IMG/VR virus record: IMGVR_UViG_2660238499_000007
Span: 1-10,267 of that record
Direction: 5' to 3' (one strand)
Length of the DNA stretch: 10,267 nt
Source: a virus
Taxonomy: Duplodnaviria > Heunggongvirae > Uroviricota > Caudoviricetes
In this document: positions 1-7,334 of the stretch, one piece after another
How positions within the stretch are numbered: position 1 is the stretch's first letter
Layout: each line of letters begins with the position of its first letter
Notes under the pieces: generated by a model
Told to the model about the DNA's origin: nothing
Seen by the model: the letters and a program-made list of their open reading frames with translations, nothing else
Database searches by the model: none
Position numbers and translations under genes: made by a program

Positions 1-204
1 TCACAAACTCACAAACCAGCAATGAGCCATCACAGGGGGGGGTAGCGACGAGTCGATGACCAGCAGCGCATCTTTCATAATGCCGAAGCGATAGATTGTC
101 TCTGACGCTTTCATGTAGTAGGTAGCATACGGTTTGTGGATGAATCTCTCATCAAGCGACAGGCGGTTCTCAACGTAATCAGCAGCCGGGCTCGGTAATC
201 CCAT
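1..204 (-). CDS. UmuD'-like (LexA/peptidase S24 family) N-terminal fragment; probably frameshifted or a pseudogene at the window edge
   Basis: 67-aa ORF MGLPSPAADYVENRLSLDERFIHKPYATYYMKAS...LLVIDSS aligns with E. coli UmuD from about residue 25 (GFPSPAADYVEQRIDLNQLL..ATYFVKAS..DLLIVDSA), i.e. it starts where UmuD is cleaved to UmuD'. GGAGG lies 6-8 nt upstream of ATG(204) and a LexA box sits just beyond. The frame terminates right after a G8 run (35-42); one alternative frame stays open to position 1. Confidence 0.55.
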   Translation of the reverse strand: MGLPSPAADYVENRLSLDERFIHKPYATYYMKASETIYRFGIMKDALLVIDSSLPPPVMAHCWFVSL

Positions 205-221
205 AACTCACCTCCGATAGT

Positions 222-241
222 TACTGTATATGAACACAGCA
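222..241. promoter_or_regulatory. LexA (SOS) box-like palindrome upstream of the umuD'-like ORF
   Basis: TACTGTATATGAACACAGCA has CTG-N10-CAG with an AT-rich centre, close to the consensus TACTGTATATATATACAGTA; it sits in the promoter position of the minus-strand ORF. Confidence 0.55.
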
Positions 242-404
242 TTGTCGATCGGTGGTGTCGATCAATAGAGATTTGAGTGATAAACTCAGATAATTACGGA
301 AACCTCTGATTGCTCAGCGTTTAGTTACACGTGCTATCTGTTATGCAAGTAGGGGTATTATCTTTTATTAATGCACACTAACTTTGTGCATATACGGAAA
401 TTAT

Positions 405-1553
405 ATGAATAAGATTGATGGTGGCAAGGTTCTTTCGGTCGAGGGTGTGAGGGGGTTGGCCTGCTTGATGGTAGTGCTTTCTCATCTATCAATAATTTTT
501 TTCCCTTACCTGCATACTGGAGACACAAAGATAATTAAGTCTTCTTTTGATGCGGTGACAAGAGATTTACCAATAGGCTTCACTTACTCTGGAACTTCAG
601 CTGTATATATATTCTTTGTATTAAGCGGATATATACTTACAAGTGTTATTTTCAGGTCTGGTTGTATATCTAAGAAGTCCGCAAAGATGCTGCTAGAAAG
701 GTATGTAAGATTATTAATACCAGTTTCGGCATCGATTATTATTTGCGCAATTGTTGTAAATTACTTCCCTTTCAATAAGTATTGGGTTCCGTGGATTTGG
801 TCATTGGGTAAAGATGGTGATTTATCTGTGATAGGAGTTTTAAAAAACTCACTATATGGCTCCATACTCAAAGGTGACTCTTCAATAAATATGGTTACAT
901 GGACTATGCAGGTTGAGTTTTATGGTTCTCTCCTTGTCTTTTTGATATCTCCTATTTCTATCTTTATTAAAAAAGCACCGCTAATATTATCTTTAATCGC
1001 AGTTTTAATCATAATTAACTTTAATGATAAAAATGCATATGGGTACGCATCATTCCTTTTTGGTATGGCTATATGTTTATGCGGATCATATAAGAATAAG
1101 GTTATTGGATATGCAATTCTTATTGCATCACTTTACTTGGCTGGATTTAAATATAATCATTATCTTTACGCATGGTTAAAAGAATTTTCATTATCTATTA
1201 ACAGCATTGAGAAAATAAATTTATACTTGCTTTTCAATCTATTATCTGGAATTGGAGTGGTATATTCCCTATGTAAGATTGGGGTTATGTCATGGTTTTC
1301 TGAATCAAAAATCATGGTCTTTTTAGGAAAGTTATCATTCTCGGCATACTTAATTCAAATGCCTGTATTTTATTGCTTATCAGGGCCAGTTTATCATGAA
1401 TCAAGGAAAATCATGAGCGACTCCAGCGCATGTTTATCAGCTGTTTTAATATCAGTGGTGATGCTTTATGCATGTTCTTACATCTTTTATTTGCTCATCG
1501 ACAGAAAAAGCATCGAGGTTTCCCATAGATTTGCCGCGATCTTTTCAAAGTAA
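405..1553 (+). CDS. Integral-membrane acyltransferase family 3 protein, O-antigen acetyltransferase (Oac/OafA)-like, probable serotype-conversion gene
   Basis: 382 aa from ATG 405 (the track uses an upstream in-frame TTG at 384). N-terminal motif VLSVEGVRGLACLMVVLSHLS matches the family-3 R-x10-H signature; the protein is very hydrophobic with many predicted TM segments; the gene is strongly AT-rich relative to its neighbours and sits next to a tailspike gene as in seroconverting P22/Sf6-type phages. Confidence 0.8.
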   Translation: MNKIDGGKVLSVEGVRGLACLMVVLSHLSIIFFPYLHTGDTKIIKSSFDAVTRDLPIGFTYSGTSAVYIFFVLSGYILTSVIFRSGCISKKSAKMLLERYVRLLIPVSASIIICAIVVNYFPFNKYWVPWIWSLGKDGDLSVIGVLKNSLYGSILKGDSSINMVTWTMQVEFYGSLLVFLISPISIFIKKAPLILSLIAVLIIINFNDKNAYGYASFLFGMAICLCGSYKNKVIGYAILIASLYLAGFKYNHYLYAWLKEFSLSINSIEKINLYLLFNLLSGIGVVYSLCKIGVMSWFSESKIMVFLGKLSFSAYLIQMPVFYCLSGPVYHESRKIMSDSSACLSAVLISVVMLYACSYIFYLLIDRKSIEVSHRFAAIFSK

Positions 1554-1560
1554 AATTAGA

Positions 1561-1582
1561 AGCCATGCGTTAGCGCATGGCT
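1561..1582. terminator. Bidirectional intrinsic terminator between convergent acyltransferase and tailspike genes
   Basis: 9-bp perfect stem AGCCATGCG/CGCATGGCT with a 4-nt loop, flanked by T-rich sequence on the tailspike strand (TCTAATTTTA) and CTTGACCTTT on the plus strand. Confidence 0.6.
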
Positions 1583-1588
1583 TGACCT

Positions 1589-3835
1589 TTAGTAAGAGAT
1601 AGGTATTTCTCCTGTAGAGAAGTTGCCTGCTGCACCTTCCCTGCTGCATAAAGCGAACTTCTTATCAACCACATCCCTTGAGTCTGTAGCAATAATTTCA
1701 TGGCAAATATTATTTGCAGATCTGTGCACGAATGTATTTACAACAGGCTTACTGGACGATGTTCCTTTGGCCCTCGTTCCGTCTATAAGGCAATCAGACA
1801 CCGACATAAGTCCTGAAACTAGGTTATTGCTTGAATCCCAATCTATCAACGACTTATCAAAATACACGCTTCCTAACATATAGGTTGTCCCTCCGGAGTA
1901 ACCAACAAACCTGCGCAGCACTCCACCTTCCAGCCTAATATAGCTGCGAGACATTCCAGACGTAAAGTTCATGAAAGTTATGTCCATATTGCTCTCAAGA
2001 CCATAAAGGCATGATGCATACTCATTCAGGTATCCAATATAAGCTAAAACCTTACAACCAATTGATTTCGCAGGTGTCAGTTTGACTATTGATATTTCTC
2101 TGGAAGTTGAATCATGGTAAGAGATGGCCCACTCAAATCTTGCATTTTTACCATTAAAGGTGCTTCCGGAGAAATCTATAACGCCAGGCATAATGAAATC
2201 ACGAATAATGCTATTTTGTGTCTTAAAATTATTTTTAAATGAAACAATGTTAAGTGTGACTGCGTCAGGCCAGTAGATATTTGTAGATATAATTACATTT
2301 TTTGGCAGATTTAATGCTCTTGGCTGAACAGGGCTACCAGTGGAAACAACATTATCACACCTGCATGTGAAGAGATCTACAAGCCCAGTTTTGTCCGATG
2401 ATATTCTTACCGAACCCCCTTTGACAATAAAATCCCCCTTATGCTCTCCATAGTCAGTGCGAATCCCAAAGGGACCAATATCTGAGTTTATAATCTGCGT
2501 TGATTCATCAAAAGCGCCAGTACCAAAAGCCGCGCCATTAATTATCCTGCAATTGTCTATCAAAACCTTAGACGATCCATAATGAAGATTGAAGCTATCA
2601 ACAGTGCAATCTCTTACCACAGTGTCACGGCTATAATTACCATCAATAGAACGCCACCCTTTCCCAACAACAGTGCTAAAAAAAGAATGCTTCAGAGTAA
2701 ACTCTAGAGTCAATGTGTAGCGAGATTCAGAATCAGGTTGTGTCATCCCCGATGAGCACAAATACCAATTAACACCGTATGTATTACTACTACCAAAAAT
2801 TGCAGAGTTGATGGGTATTACGCCTAAGGTATTATCATAATTAACCCTTACATCAACCATAGACCTTTTGATATCAACAGCCGTGCCAGTAAACGTCCCT
2901 GATAACTTAGGCAATACAGTGACAGTCCTTCGCACAGGCAGCTTATATAAAGTACAGATAAGTGAAGAGTTGTATGTATTCTTAAATGTATACGCTAAAT
3001 CACTTCCTTTGGTTAGTAGGTTAACTTCACCTTTGTATTTTGGCGTGAAAGTGCTGCCAAGCAATCGGTACAAGTCAATTTCAGTACCAGACATCTTAAC
3101 TAAGGAATTATCCCATCCAGTGGTTGACTCTGTAAATGTTAGCGCGGAAGTTAGCTCGTTTAATGGATATGCTGATGGTGTAAAATCTTTAATGTATGTA
3201 GATGCGTCTCTCTCATCAGCATAAACAATCTTACCGCCAGCCAGGTTGAACGTGCAATTGCTGAGATCAAAATCTCCGTATAACGTTGTCTCTTTGTCGA
3301 TAGTGAAAGTCAGTGGCATAGTTGAGTAGATTTTCACTGGAGTTCCTTTAAACTCAGCAAAAACAGAATTCAACTGATCGCTATTTCTTTCACCATCAGC
3401 AGCAGCTATATCGTATACAGAAAGCCTGACCTCTAACCCCCCTATTATTTTGTAACCGTCTGGCGAACTAATTTCATCCATGAACCTTTGCTCAAACTGG
3501 TCAGGGTCATACTTCAGCACATTCGGAAAATAGAACTGCTGAGAACCGTACGCATCGTATACAGCCATAGAATGGCCTTGCACAGTTACGAATTTGGCAA
3601 TCTGTCCGTTATATACAGGATACCCGCCAGCGTTAATGATGATTGGCTGTGCAACAGGAACGTGAGAACCGTCTTCGTTTTCCACATAAACCTGAATCTG
3701 GTTTTCAGGATTTACCGGGTCAGTGCCAATTTTACCGATATAAATTTTGCCATTGGCTACGGCTTTAAAAGAACGAGCCATAGTGAAGAGTTGCGAAGGC
3801 ATGCTTACCACAACATTTGCGGTGATATCTGACAT
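1589..3835 (-). CDS. P22-type tailspike protein (gp9 family) with conserved head-binding N-terminal domain and divergent receptor-binding/enzymatic body
   Basis: 748 aa from ATG at 3835 (CTGGAGCAATGAAATG, GGAG RBS); the track ORF starts 16 codons upstream. The first ~120 aa ([56 protein letters not shown]...[17 protein letters not shown]...[10 protein letters not shown]) match the P22 gp9 head-binding domain as recalled; the rest is Ser/Thr/Gly/Asn-rich as in beta-helix tailspikes but not recognisably P22, Sf6 or HK620. Confidence 0.9.
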
Positions 3836-3956
3836 TTCATTGCTCCAGACGAATGATATGATGCAACCATGATGTGATTGCATACCGAAATGGTACTATT
3901 GAGTATTTATCCAGTAGGTTACGATGCCATTCCACCCAACTGGTGAGGCATCAAGG
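3836..3956. promoter_or_regulatory. Divergent intergenic control region between tailspike and mnt; possible Mnt operator
   Basis: 121-bp spacer between divergent starts. It contains TCCACCCAACTGGTGAGG (about 3931-3948), an imperfect inverted repeat (CACC...GGTG) reminiscent of the P22 Omnt core (GGTCCACGGTGGACC). Promoter hexamers not assigned with confidence. Confidence 0.3.
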
Positions 3957-4217
3957 ATGTACAGCAAATACGACGAGGCGCAGTTTCACTTGAGACTTCC
4001 GCATGAACTTCACGCGAAAATTAAACAGCGTGCGAAGATGAATAACAGGTCGCTGAACTCAGAGATAATTGCAGCGATTGAAGAATCATTGACTAAACAA
4101 AGCTCTGCATCAGTTTACATTGACGATGCAGAGCGTATGGCAGAACAACAATCCGATATGGTAAAGAAAATTGTCTTTGATACGCTCAAAGAGCTATATA
4201 AAAAAGACAGCAGCTAA
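3957..4217 (+). CDS. mnt: Mnt-like ribbon-helix-helix repressor (Arc/Mnt family)
   Basis: 86 aa from ATG 3957 (AGGA RBS; the track ORF begins at an upstream ATG 3924). FHLRLPHELHAKIKQRAKMNNRSLNSEII..IEESL and the C-terminal ERMAEQQSDMVKKIVFDTLKELYKK closely resemble P22 Mnt (FNFRMPMEVREKLKFRAEANGRSMNSELLQIV...ERLADEQSELVKKMVFDTLKDLYKK) as recalled. Confidence 0.8.
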   Translation: MYSKYDEAQFHLRLPHELHAKIKQRAKMNNRSLNSEIIAAIEESLTKQSSASVYIDDAERMAEQQSDMVKKIVFDTLKELYKKDSS

Positions 4218-4224
4218 CTATCAG

Positions 4225-4728
4225 TTACGGAGGATTCCCGATAGGGGGTAAGGGGGTATTTGTATTTATTGTCTTTTGTATATTGTCTTTTGTGTTTGAC
4301 TGATTCGGTAAATTGCTTTTTACCGATTTGGTGAAGGTTTGTTTTACCGAATTGGTAAATGTTTTACCGAATCCGTTAACTTTCGTTTTCCACTCGGAAA
4401 TGTTTGTATTCATACCAACTTGACGCCCCACCTGAATGAGAACTCCCATTCTGATAAGCTCGTTTTTGGCGGTAGAGCATTTGGTTGGTGCCATGCCAGT
4501 GAGTTCAGCGAACTGTTCGTTTCCGATCCAATCTATTTTTTTGTTGTAACCGTATGTCTTGCGCCACACAGCCATAACAATCAGTAACTGATGTAGAGTA
4601 AGTCCAGAAAGCATGGCGGCTTCTAACAGTGTGTTTGCAGTCCGAGTGTAGCCATCTTCGAGTTCTGCCACGCGATGCTCCACGACCTCCAGTTGAGGCC
4701 TGTAATCAGCTAACTTAACGACGCCCAT
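4225..4728 (-). CDS. Lambda-O-like replication initiator, N-terminal iteron-binding domain only (truncated, C-terminal domain absent)
   Basis: 167 aa; residues 20-110 (AELEDGYTRTANTLLEA...LIVMAVWRKTYGYNKKIDWIGNEQFAELTGMAPTKCSTAKNELIRMGVLIQ...GMNTNISEW) parallel lambda O N-terminus (ADLDDGYARLSNMLLEA...LAILRKTYGWNKPMDRITDSQLSEITKLPVKRCNEAKLELVRMNIIKQ...GPNKNISEW). AGGAG RBS before ATG 4728. The ORF runs through the iteron and AT-rich region and stops at 4225, 7 bp from the mnt stop; lambda O is about 299 aa. Confidence 0.75.
   Translation of the reverse strand: MGVVKLADYRPQLEVVEHRVAELEDGYTRTANTLLEAAMLSGLTLHQLLIVMAVWRKTYGYNKKIDWIGNEQFAELTGMAPTKCSTAKNELIRMGVLIQVGRQVGMNTNISEWKTKVNGFGKTFTNSVKQTFTKSVKSNLPNQSNTKDNIQKTINTNTPLPPIGNPP
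4300..4381. repeat. ori-type iterons (four ~18-bp repeats) followed by AT-rich tract, embedded in the O-like gene
   Basis: Four copies of TTTACCGAAT-NN-GGTAAA-like repeats at about 22-bp spacing (ATTCGGTAAATTG; TTTACCGATTTGGTGAA; TTTACCGAATTGGTAAA, a perfect palindrome; TTTACCGAATCCGTTAA), mirrored in the protein as KTFTNSVKQTFTKSVK. An AT-rich AAAGACAATA-repeat stretch lies immediately 3' on the coding strand (about 4255-4300), matching lambda ori organisation. Confidence 0.7.
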
Positions 4729-4876
4729 GTTTCACTCCTGCTTTGGCTAGTCTGTAAACACCAACAAGGCGCTCTGCGAACGCCCTGTTATTTGCTGCGG
4801 CTACCACTAATCCCTCAGGTGAATCAGGGTGTCGAATCTCTTCTTTTTCCTGGTATTTCTTACGACGTTTTGTCAT
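4715..4876 (-). CDS. Small basic hypothetical protein (53 aa) between cII and the O-like gene
   Basis: ATG at 4876 preceded by AGGAG (CTACAGGAGTAATTATG); translation MTKRRKKYQEKEEIRHPDSPEGLVVAAANNRAFAERLVGVYRLAKAGVKHGRR; its stop overlaps the O-like start by about 14 nt. Below the ORF-track size cutoff; no family recognised. Confidence 0.35.
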   Translation of the reverse strand: MTKRRKKYQEKEEIRHPDSPEGLVVAAANNRAFAERLVGVYRLAKAGVKHGRR

Positions 4877-4908
4877 AATTACTCCTGTAGATTGATCCAG
4901 TAATTCCC

Positions 4909-5205
4909 TCAGAATTGCATATCAATTTGCTTAAAATCCTCGGTGGCGGCCGGGGATTTTTTCTTTGTGATTCCATCCAATGCATACTTAAAAGCCCTGC
5001 TAATCGGACTGATGTCTGATGCCATTCCGAAAGCACACAAGACCGAAGCAATAAACCTCCAGTCCGTTCTGCTTATCTTCGATTCATGACAGCCAATCAT
5101 CTTTGCCAGACCGCGCTGGGTAAGCGTTGACAGGTTGATGAGTAAATCAGTTTCAGCGCGATCAATTTCTCGCTGTGTTGGCTTGCTATAACTTGCTTGT
5201 GTCAT
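4909..5205 (-). CDS. cII: CII-family transcriptional activator (lysogeny establishment)
   Basis: 98 aa; the central HTH and C-terminus (..ISR.....L..G......KKSPAATEDFKQIDMQF) align with lambda CII (..KSQISRWKRDW....NKKRPAATERSEQIQMEF) at roughly 35-40 percent identity. It sits downstream of cro on the pR strand as in lambda. Confidence 0.8.
   Translation of the reverse strand: MTQASYSKPTQREIDRAETDLLINLSTLTQRGLAKMIGCHESKISRTDWRFIASVLCAFGMASDISPISRAFKYALDGITKKKSPAATEDFKQIDMQF
5183..5196 (+). promoter_or_regulatory. pRE-like CII-binding direct repeat (TTGC-N6-TTGC) overlapping the 5' end of cII, oriented toward cI
   Basis: TTGCTATAACTTGC on the plus strand inside the first codons of cII, the position and orientation of lambda pRE -35 (TTGC-N6-TTGC). 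Confidence 0.45.
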
Positions 5206-5289
5206 TTGTTAATTTTCCAATAGTGAATAGTTAGTTGAAAGGTATGCGTGGAAACGCATATGGCCTTAGTTGGTCAGATATCTTGGGGC

Positions 5290-5336
5290 TCGCTTTGTCA
5301 GCGACGTAGGACGAATGTCCATTGTGAAAAGAGCGG
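5290..5336 (-). promoter_or_regulatory. nutR-like site (boxA-like plus boxB hairpin) between cro and cII
   Basis: On the pR-transcribed strand: CGCTCTTTTCACA (boxA-like, about 5325-5337) followed by the hairpin TCGCTGACAAAGCGA (about 5290-5304), which resembles the P22-type boxB GCGCUGACAAAGCGC rather than lambda boxB GCCCUGAAGAAGGGC. Confidence 0.5.
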
Positions 5337-5342
5337 TGTTAC

Positions 5343-5543
5343 TTATGCAGTTGTTTTTTTGTTACTTGGGAAGGGCTTTATTTCTTCCGCATAAACGCTT
5401 CCATCAGCGTTTATAGTTAAAAAAATCTTTCGGCCTGCATGAATGGCCTTGTTAATCGCGCTTTGATATACGCCGAGATCTTTAGCCGTCTTGGTTTGCC
5501 CAAAGCGTATTGCATAATCTTTCAGGGTTATGCGTTGTTCCAT
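5343..5543 (-). CDS. cro: Cro repressor, lambda-type
   Basis: 66 aa [66 protein letters not shown], essentially lambda Cro with about two conservative substitutions versus my recall; AGGAGG RBS before the ATG. Confidence 0.95.
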
Positions 5544-5569
5544 ACAACCTCCTTAGTACAGGCAACCAC

Positions 5570-5633
5570 TATCACCGCTAGAGGTAAAATAGCCAACACG
5601 CACGGTGTTAGAAGTTTATCCCTTGCGGTGATA
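5570..5633. promoter_or_regulatory. Lambda-type right operator OR1-OR2-OR3 with divergent pR (toward cro) and pRM (toward cI)
   Basis: OR1 TATCACCGCTAGAGGTA (5570-5586, one G-to-A change versus lambda), OR2 CAACACGCACGGTGTTA (5594-5610, lambda wild type), OR3 TATCCCTTGCGGTGATA (5617-5633), placed between divergent cro and cI exactly as in lambda. Confidence 0.9.
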
Positions 5634-5640
5634 GATTTAA

Positions 5641-6357
<717 letters not shown>

Positions 6358-6388
6358 TTGTTTTATTTTTCACGTAATAGGATGATTT

Positions 6389-6730
6389 ATGACACAATTT
6401 CAACTTGCATTAATCGCTAGAGAAGTTGATGGAGAAGTCATCCATCTTCGCACCAAAGACGGATACATCAATGCCACCGCGATGTGCAAGTCTGCGGGGA
6501 AGCTACTTGCTGACTATACACGACTAAAAACAACACAAGATTTTTTTGATGAATTATCACGCGATATGGGGATTCCCATATCGGAGTTAATTCAATCATT
6601 TAAAGGCGGAAGAGCAGAGAATCAAGGGACTTGGGTTCATCCAGACATCGCAATTAATTTAGCTCAGTGGCTATCTCCAAAATTTGCAGTGCAAGTATCG
6701 AGATGGGTGCGTGAGTGGATGTCAGGTTAA
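6389..6730 (+). CDS. KilA-N domain protein (113 aa) in the cI-downstream accessory locus
   Basis: YINATAMCKSAGKLLADYTRLKTTQDFFDELS...GTWVHPDIAINLAQWLSPKFAVQVSRWV matches the KilA-N/APSES-type DNA-binding signature (NATxxCKxxGK ... GTWVHPxxAxxLAxWxSPxF) as I recall it. It occupies the locus lambda uses for rexAB. An in-frame TAA at 6728-6730 separates it from the next ORF. Confidence 0.55.
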   Translation: MTQFQLALIAREVDGEVIHLRTKDGYINATAMCKSAGKLLADYTRLKTTQDFFDELSRDMGIPISELIQSFKGGRAENQGTWVHPDIAINLAQWLSPKFAVQVSRWVREWMSG

Positions 6731-6769
6731 AGAGCGCCTGCCGAACTCCCTATCCACCTTAAGCGGTAT

Positions 6770-7148
6770 ATGACAAACCGAGGCAGAGTTCCTCATACGC
6801 ACTTTTCTATGCTTAATGAACTGACGTTTAACTTGGTTGCGCCACTTGAACAGGCCGGATATACGCTGCCAGAAAAAATGGTCCCTGATATTTCAGAGGG
6901 TAGGGTTTTCTCGCAATGGCTCCGTGACAACCGGGGGGTTGAGCCGAAGACATTCCCAACATATAACCATGAGTACCCAGATGGCCGGACATTCCCGGTA
7001 CGTCTATACCCAAACGAATATTGCAGATTTCAAACAATACTTCAACGAAGTGTGGCTGCCTCAGTACGCTCCTAAATATTTTGCTGAACGAGACCAAAGG
7101 GCATTGACGTTGATTGAGAAAATCATGCTACCTGACCTTGATTCCTAA
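6770..7148 (+). pseudogene. Hypothetical gene downstream of KilA-N, apparently disrupted by a frameshift near 7000-7025 (possible original C-terminal part of the KilA-N protein)
   Basis: The frame opening at 6770 (MTNRGRVPHTHFSMLNELTFNLVAPLEQAGY...YPDGRTFPVRLYPNEY) is the same frame as the KilA-N ORF, separated by one stop. It ends at 7075, but a second frame continues with protein-like sequence (..IADFKQYFNEVWLPQYAPKYFAERDQRALTLIEKIMLPDLDS) to a stop at 7146-7148 that is followed directly by an intrinsic terminator. Confidence 0.4.
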
Positions 7149-7156
7149 ATGTTATT

Positions 7157-7182
7157 CCCGGCCACAGAGCCGGGTTTTCTTT
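7157..7182 (+). terminator. Intrinsic terminator closing the cI-operon accessory region
   Basis: CCCGGC-CACAGA-GCCGGG stem-loop followed by TTTTCTTT. Confidence 0.7.
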
Positions 7183-7334
7183 GCCTCACGATCCCCCTCA
7201 CCCAAGAACACATAACCAATTGTATCTATTTGAAAATAAATAGATACAACTCACTAAACATAGCAGTTCAGATCTCTCACCTACCAAACAATGCACCACT
7301 GCAAAAAATAAATTCATATAAAAAACATACAGAT

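Follow-up and report, generated by a model that had tools for sequence, protein, structure and literature searches.

In phage P22, the annotated order of the immI region is mnt, then the control elements Omnt, Pmnt, Pant and Oarc, followed by arc, sar, ant and gene 9. Passages in two papers describe the P22-like phages L, ST64T, ST104 and ST160 as carrying mnt alone beside the tailspike gene, and ask if the gene serves some other function or is left over as a remnant (PMC2629481, PMC8022706). The section of the phage L genome paper by Zaworski et al. that deals with the orphan mnt poses the same two alternatives, functional or remnant (PMC8022706), as did the original prediction for the DNA studied here. 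A passage in Villafane et al. (2008) suggests that the ant moron may alter how often late transcripts reach the tailspike gene, with Mnt and Arc possibly involved (PMC2629481). Here we analyse an orphan mnt in a Caudoviricetes record of IMG/VR (IMGVR_UViG_2660238499_000007, positions 1 to 10,267; this whole stretch of 10,267 nucleotides is called the window below). The segment at positions 3836–4217 comprises mnt and the spacer between it and the divergently oriented tailspike gene. With moderate confidence, we propose that this segment constitutes the regulatory end of an ant moron from an Sf101/IME10-type P22-like phage, in a version that never includes arc or ant, and that it represents a self-contained, probably autoregulated module with a predicted binding site for Mnt. 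The analysis thereby adds a predicted operator for this class of Mnt proteins and evidence that orphan Mnt modules are maintained.

The locus consists of the following elements:

1589–3835, minus strand: tailspike gene, 748 amino acids, with a P22-type head-binding N-domain and a variable receptor-binding C-domain
3843–3846, minus strand: GGAG, ribosome-binding site of the tailspike gene, read from the sequence
3861–3883, minus strand: inverted repeat found by a repeat search, with 9-nt arms (3861–3869 and 3875–3883) that are 89% complementary
3882–3896, no strand assigned: predicted Mnt operator ATACCGAAATGGTAC, with the core TACC-N5-GGTA at 3883–3895, at the position of Omnt
3899–3925, plus strand: Pmnt homologue, TTGAGT (3899–3904), a 15-nt spacer and TACGAT (3920–3925), from an alignment with the annotated P22 Pmnt
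3957–4217, plus strand: mnt, 86 amino acids, identified by Pfam
4093–4134, minus strand: terminator-like hairpin antisense within mnt, GCUCUGCAUC-N13-GAUGCAGAGC followed by UUUGUUUAG, from repeat search and folding

Judged by its domain matches, the product of 3957–4217 is a full-length Mnt. It combines the N-terminal ribbon-helix-helix (Arc/MetJ) domain (Pfam PF03869 Arc, 6.3e-15) with the C-terminal coiled-coil tetramerisation domain (Pfam PF11423 Repressor_Mnt, 3.5e-14), and it matches both solved parts of P22 Mnt, the N-domain (PDB 1mnt, 3.2e-19, residues 6–79) and the tetramerisation domain (PDB 1qey, 1.5e-8, residues 56–84). These results agree with the original prediction, which had called mnt intact. 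An in-frame ATG at 3924 was rejected as the start codon: it overlaps the predicted –10 element, and in the related class B genes introduced below its counterpart lies out of frame. Homologues of this protein (Sf101 gp14 in NC_027398, P22 mnt in NC_002371 and PHROG 795) are labelled “partition protein ATPase”; this label in RefSeq and PHROG is a propagating annotation error.

For the tailspike gene, the list of open reading frames (ORFs) gives a start at 3883. The Pfam domain Head_binding (2.5e-66, residues 1–113) aligns from residue 1 of the version starting at 3835 (MSDITANV), which therefore is the true start and leaves a spacer of 121 bp (3836–3956), the distance that had been claimed. The motif CTGGAGCA is kept in nearly all tailspike leaders. 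The absence of arc and ant, also claimed before, was confirmed by tblastn of the window with P22 Arc and Ant, which found no homologue of either other than Mnt itself. Rfam at gathering thresholds gave no match anywhere in the window, sar included, the presence of a sar model in that release not being confirmed. The Oarc sequence is absent from the spacer. Thus, the elements that make up immI, namely ant under Mnt control, arc together with Oarc, a divergent Pant overlapped by Omnt, and sar, were not found in the window. What the locus shares with P22 immI is the protein family with both of its domains, the place between gene 16 and the tailspike gene, an orientation opposite to late transcription, and an operator abutting the –35 element of a Pmnt with ATTG at –35 and TAnnAT at –10. 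It differs by the missing arc, ant, sar, Oarc and Pant, by a spacer of 121 bp to the tailspike gene compared with 90 bp to arc in P22, and by its palindrome (TACC-N5-GGTA instead of GGTCCAC-N-GTGGACC). Sf101, IME10 and the loci of classes A and B described below likewise have mnt between gene 16 and the tailspike gene, against the late operon; in the window, gene 16 is deleted and the tailspike side is unaltered.

All spacers were set in the P22 orientation, in which Omnt, Pmnt, Pant and Oarc are annotated. An alignment of 12 sequences including P22 revealed a palindrome that is followed after 2 nt, without exception, by an invariant ATTG, the –35 element of Pmnt, and after about 20 nt by an equally invariant TAnnAT, the –10 element. 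In the window this position is occupied by ATACCGAAATGGTAC. The 15-nt spacer of its Pmnt homologue is 2 nt shorter than in loci with a 135-bp spacer between mnt and tailspike. We infer that Mnt binds to 3882–3896, that it regulates its own gene and that Pmnt is active with a 15-nt spacer. The mnt leader is flanked by another inverted repeat, GATGCC (3923–3928) and GGCATC (3947–3952), which overlaps the –10 element and the ribosome-binding site; it is kept in the orphan classes A and B and not in P22.

In total, 98 mnt loci were collected from phage records, genomes and viral contigs, 71 of them belonging to class A and 25 to class B. The samples consist of the best 80 matches of each search, and a search of genome contigs with a 4-sequence alignment gave 10 loci. 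Across three Mnt classes, the recognition strand of the protein and the operator change together:

P22 class: recognition strand RDDPHFNFRM; palindrome GGTCCAC-N-GTGGACC, exact in most of 80 loci and with one base changed in a few; ant in 79 of 80
Class B (L, ST64T, ST160, Gally): recognition strand RDDPQFNLRL; palindrome GACCAC-N-GTGGTC in 25 of 25 loci; arc and ant absent
Class A (window): recognition strand YDEAQFHLRL; palindrome TACC-N5-GGTA, exact in 66 of 71 loci; arc and ant absent

The residues Arg2, His6, Asn8 and Arg10 of P22 Mnt reportedly contact operator bases, according to studies by Knight and Sauer. At the aligned positions the window protein carries Tyr, Gln, His and Arg, so that three of the four differ and one Arg is retained. 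With both these residues and the palindrome differing, the signature of P22 operator specificity is absent from the window Mnt. The class A operator is located at –74 from the mnt ATG in 66 of the 71 loci, the other five having a single changed base in one arm, and neither of the class A and class B palindromes occurs at the operator position of the other class. The same correspondence between class and palindrome is kept in species-level genomes of Escherichia sp., Buttiauxella and Serratia, and in a Citrobacter locus a truncated mnt occurs together with a mutated operator arm.

Only one copy of the operator was found in the complete genome of Sf101, even if up to two mismatches were allowed. 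Among viral contigs, the exact 15-mer gave at least 119 matches, 54 of which lie beside mnt. No P22-like Mnt, Arc or Ant accompanies the remaining 65 among the matches listed, the Ant probe being of the P22 type only, and about that many matches are expected by chance according to our estimate. The matches away from mnt include six unrelated viral contigs (L103, L108, L132, L143, L171 and L180), each with two exact ATACCGAAAYGGTAC 15-mers spaced exactly 515 bp apart; no homologue of Mnt, Arc, Ant or the tailspike was found near these pairs.

The layout without arc and ant is not peculiar to this DNA: it is standard in a large group of P22-like phages and has already been described. The same junction is present in Sf101 and IME10, and arc or ant between mnt and tailspike was found in none of the 96 class A and class B loci. 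Viable phage isolates in which mnt and tailspike are directly divergent, with neither arc nor ant, include Sf101, IME10, Gally, ST160, L and Proteus phage Brookers; JEP4, too, lacks arc and ant at this place, its spacer being longer and the start of its tailspike differing. Most class A and B spacers measure 120–148 bp (the spacer ranging from 109 to 148 bp), with about ten loci showing a longer gap or another tailspike start. A protein identical to the window Mnt is present in at least 275 blocks of the sequence collection. In nine of ten contexts listed, the distance to the tailspike start is exactly 121 bp, with 135 bp in L016, and these ten contexts vary in their tailspike C-domains and in the neighbouring gtrABC or acyltransferase genes. 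Conversely, loci anchored on Arc carry a P22-class Mnt in 80 of 80 cases, a 90-bp spacer in 79 and ant in 79. The arrangement without arc and ant is therefore no sign of rewiring at an individual locus.

A close relative is gene 14 of Sf101, mislabelled as a “partition protein ATPase” in RefSeq, together with its unannotated equivalent in IME10. The protein is 97.7% identical to the window Mnt and is flanked by the same tailspike N-domain; the 121-bp spacer is identical in Sf101 and differs by one base in IME10, and Sf101 also carries an O-acetyltransferase beside the tailspike. Unlike the window, both are complete, viable phages, and Sf101 has a different tailspike C-domain (581 amino acids) and replication module. 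Phages L, ST64T, ST104 and ST160 resemble the window in having mnt alone beside the tailspike without arc and ant, but differ in their class B Mnt (RDDPQFNLRL), which shares about 49–58% identity with the window protein, in the palindrome AGACCACGGTGGTCT and in a 135-bp spacer. In some phages with a tailspike-adjacent mnt (JEP4, which is L005, CUS-3, which is L007, and L062, L064, L068, L070 and L073), Arc-, Ant-, Rha- or KilA-like genes with a regulator of their own are found beyond mnt, away from the tailspike. An antirepressor is therefore not in every case regulated by the mnt nearest to the tailspike. CUS-3 contains two tandem mnt-like genes.

Several observations speak against the suggestion that mnt might be the mere footprint of a lost immI region. 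The junction is found in Sf101, IME10, Gally, L and ST160, and operator and recognition strand vary together. For mnt, the ratio of nonsynonymous to synonymous polymorphism (pN/pS) amounts to 0.18 in class A of the window type, 0.22 in class A of the JEP4 type and 0.14 in class B, with 0.11 for the DNA-binding domain of class A, and only one of the 98 mnt genes is truncated. Because pN/pS is as low as 0.11–0.22, each class has its matched palindrome and the Pmnt hexamers are kept, simple decay of a lost immI is improbable, at least in phages. The low pN/pS together with the co-variation of recognition strand and operator argues that orphan mnt is functional. Within the remnant lineage to which the window belongs, the available copies are too similar for measuring selection.

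Besides the gating of read-through and the immunity discussed below, a candidate role that could keep orphan Mnt under selection in the phages is the control of small downstream genes. In 35 of 71 class A loci (L009, 6262–6350, and 34 others), intact relatives of the window carry behind mnt a strong ribosome-binding site (GGAGGA) with a conserved hydrophobic ORF of 25 amino acids, MQRDMLNIAFYIFGFCTFLVFAKLF, which has no PHROG match. A point against such a role is that Sf101 lacks this ORF.

We also looked at how the tailspike gene is transcribed, since the original prediction considered that Mnt had been rewired to control its expression. A consensus scan of 3700–4400 found nothing resembling a sigma-70 site on the tailspike strand. 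Where P22 has Pant, TTGACA-17-TATATT, the homologous sequence of the window is ATGGCA-15-TAAATA, without the invariant –10 T, and the 135-bp and class B spacers show yet other bases. A tailspike promoter in the spacer was thus rejected by both the scan and the inspection of the Pant-homologous bases in three spacer types. Furthermore, the distance from operator to Pmnt is fixed, whereas the distance from operator to tailspike varies with spacer length. Given that Pant is not conserved, that the scan found no promoter and that the operator–tailspike distance varies, a Mnt-repressed tailspike promoter is unsupported.

The strand geometry, by contrast, had been described correctly. In the window cro, cII, the truncated replication gene O′, the antisense strand of mnt and the tailspike gene all lie on the minus strand, and read-through from pR would run antisense through mnt into the tailspike gene, mirroring late-operon transcription in the intact relatives. 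On this route lies the antisense hairpin within mnt, which has perfect 10-nt arms (4102–4111 and 4125–4134) and a folding energy of –18 kcal/mol. In 14 window-type variants, 140 of 140 stem cells are paired, and the only changes in the stem give G·U in this sense. The hairpin is limited to the window-type linker sequence and is absent from the mnt genes of JEP4-type loci, class B and P22. Between cII and tailspike, the predictions for the minus strand contain no further terminator-like site. Since Q is deleted and a search of the early-left region of the window identified no gene for an N-type antiterminator, transcripts from pR might stop at this hairpin if it functions as a terminator.

Based on these observations, we propose the following scenario. 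The module would have been inherited intact from an Sf101/IME10-like phage. In the prophage, Mnt would be made from the Pmnt-type promoter TTGAGT-15-TACGAT (3899–3925), and the Mnt tetramer would bind to the class-specific operator ATACCGAAATGGTAC abutting the –35 element, forming a self-contained and probably autoregulated pair of repressor and operator within a spacer that lacks a tailspike promoter. In intact relatives, the late operon would end with the tailspike gene, and antiterminated transcripts would reach it by crossing mnt in antisense, passing first the hairpin within mnt, then the operator and finally the leader hairpin at 3861–3883. In the window, read-through from pR would be the only possible source of transcription into the tailspike gene. 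Some points weigh against this scenario. The selection that keeps orphan Mnt is not explained by it, as an autoregulated repressor without another target needs a further function, and the universal adjacency to the tailspike is treated as linkage rather than function. A 15-nt spacer would normally make Pmnt a weak promoter. In Phlomobacter, a class-B-like Mnt occurs together with arc; with samples made up of the best 80 matches, the division into orphan classes A and B and a P22 class with arc and ant may fail more widely.

Among the alternatives, a role of Mnt in the expression of the tailspike can take two forms. Direct repression of a Pant-derived tailspike promoter within the 121-bp spacer would be in line with P22, whose Pant is directed towards the tailspike side and overlapped in its start region by Omnt, and with the homologous place of the window operator; in the face of a minus strand without any promoter-like site and of Pant-homologous bases without the invariant –10 T, we regard it as highly improbable. 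The closest viable form of such control is a read-through gate, in which a Mnt roadblock at 3882–3896 and the antisense hairpin stop transcripts that are not antiterminated, so that the tailspike would be expressed only from Q-modified late transcripts. In every locus examined, the operator lies on the sole transcriptional route to the tailspike, the terminator-like hairpin of the same sense is kept in each of the 14 variants of the window type, a terminator is annotated in P22 between ant and gene 9, and the idea accords with the suggestion on the ant moron and late transcripts made in the cited passage of Villafane et al. 2008 (PMC2629481). What makes us doubt it is that evolution has kept the distance of the operator to Pmnt and not to the tailspike, and that the hairpin is confined to the window-type linker sequence. 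Moreover, repressor roadblocks are usually leaky against antiterminated polymerase. We therefore judge such a gate unlikely, albeit less so than direct promoter control. For the window itself, tailspike control has no role, since every late gene is missing from the remnant.

Mnt could also act in trans, with mnt of the prophage repressing ant of incoming relatives whose operator has the same specificity and thereby preventing induction by the Ant protein of the superinfecting phage. This is the role of Mnt in P22 itself, as far as immI immunity is described in the relevant passages of two papers (PMC2629481, PMC11016777), and mnt is presumably expressed from the prophage and is under purifying selection. 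However, the class A operator never precedes ant or arc among the matches listed (at least 119, with 54 beside mnt, and a P22-type Ant probe), and all 80 Arc-anchored loci have P22-class operators, which leaves this form of immunity with little probability. About equally improbable is that in this particular remnant mnt and its site are functionless leftovers, intact merely because the target is small and the deletion recent. Such inertness would suit the general state of the prophage, with its bstA broken into three, its truncated RecT and int, and no gene identified for an N-type antiterminator. It would also suit the sister copies with an already broken tailspike (L222, L225) or acyltransferase (L227) and the Citrobacter locus with its truncated mnt and mutated operator arm. 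Nevertheless, mnt is intact in six of six remnant copies, survives in the independently deleted remnants L003, L014, L015 and L017, and belongs to a module that is clearly maintained across phages.

A more far-reaching speculation, to which we give a low probability, combines several of these elements: orphan Mnt would be a distinct, long-lived regulatory device with class-specific operators, bound Mnt and the antisense terminator would gate the tailspike to antiterminated late transcripts, and Mnt might in addition bind to P22-type ori iterons and interfere with replication of the resident or incoming phage. Four palindromic ori iterons are located at 4296–4379 within the truncated O gene. 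One of them, TACCGAATTGGTA (4345–4357), is identical to the operator core in 12 of 13 positions, with one central base differing; it lies 128 bp downstream of the mnt stop codon and was brought near by the deletion. In a shuffle control for operator-like sites, 6 of 200 shuffles gave two or more sites. The likeness between operator and iteron is probably due to chance.

The inverted repeat at 3861–3883 is most likely the imperfect palindrome that the original prediction likened to Omnt. A repeat is indeed present, but the resemblance does not stand: it is unlike P22 Omnt (AGGTCCACCGTGGACCT) and does not lie at the Omnt position, which is held by ATACCGAAATGGTAC, and it was rejected as a Mnt site. 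In the tailspike sense, it would fold as AUGCAAUCA-CAUCA-UGGUUGCAU with nine pairs including one G·U; the minimum-energy fold of the minus strand holds the central seven pairs, with an unremarkable z of –1.35. The repeat occurs only in spacers of the 121-bp type, and the 135-bp spacer of class A differs at this place. At the same distance from the start codon, a CCGUAGC-CAU-GCUGCGG hairpin precedes P22 gene 9 and the CUS-3 tailspike gene, in CUS-3 falling inside an element annotated as “boundary sequence”. Variants of the repeat, read from the sequences, show U·G changed to U-A or C-G and C-G changed to U·G, and an Escherichia sp. copy has a compensating change from G-C to U-A. In 12 leaders of the bsq type, 97.6% of the stem is paired, and several of its G·U pairs would be lost as mismatches if the opposite strand were folded; a shuffle control was not significant (139 of 500). 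RNAalifold on mixed leader types gave no consensus structure, the hairpins being out of register. The case for a leader hairpin thus consists of positional conservation and the G·U asymmetry. As P22 has an equivalent element 1.4 kb away from Omnt, the repeat is probably an element of the tailspike leader and not a Mnt operator.

The window as a whole is a strongly decayed P22-like (Lederbergvirus-type) prophage remnant of about 10 kb, located between sbcB and dacD. Its other features are:

384–1553, plus strand: acyltransferase_3 gene (O-antigen acetylase type), from ORF and Pfam
4218–4236, no strand assigned: last 19 bp of mnt-side phage DNA before the deletion joint 4236/4237, where homology ends
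4225–4728, minus strand: truncated replication gene O′, 167 amino acids, from Pfam Phage_rep_O, reading over the deletion joint
4909–5205, minus strand: cII
5343–5543, minus strand: cro
5644–6357, plus strand: cI
6389–7148, plus strand: bstA-like gene in three pieces
7741–8076, plus strand: truncated recT
9261–9452, plus strand: xis
9433–10121, minus strand: broken integrase gene

DNA homology to IME10 and Sf101 (94.5–96% identity) extends from inside the tailspike N-domain up to 4236, and homology to P22 gene 18 (O) begins at 4237, indicating that a single deletion brought together mid-O and the sequence flanking mnt on its 3′ side. This deletion from mid-O to the end of gene 16 removed P, nin, Q and the lysis, head, tail and ejection genes. 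With the late promoter and all late genes gone, the tailspike has no virion to join. The 19 bp before the joint end in GGAGGATT, which by comparison with L009 is the ribosome-binding site of the 25-amino-acid ORF; the joint falls directly behind it, and the ORF itself is deleted here.

In the sequence collection, the O′ fusion ORF appears in 58 blocks. Six remnant copies (L222–L227) from independent samples, located between sbcB and dacD-sbmC-yeeA, are 99.8–99.97% identical to the window; a comparison of the whole window with complete E. coli genomes gave no full-length match. The tailspike gene is split (393 and 343 amino acids) in L222 and L225, and the 748-amino-acid product is also called in L012, L223, L224 and L226. 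The acyltransferase gene is split in L227, individual copies also have an insertion sequence in the integrase gene, and mnt is intact in all six.

Downstream of cI, the three fragments of the BstA-type abortive-infection gene correspond to positions 6–121, 164–253 and 245–301 of PHROG 6287. The early-left region (7149–10121) is decayed as well, with recT cut to 111 amino acids and the integrase gene in at least two ORFs. Other E. coli prophage remnants at the argW/yfdC site (L003, L014, L015 and L017) have different deletions and keep the integrase gene, the tailspike gene or pieces of it, mnt, and O-antigen modification genes (the latter unannotated in L003). The tailspike/mnt end of the prophage thus seems to survive decay repeatedly.

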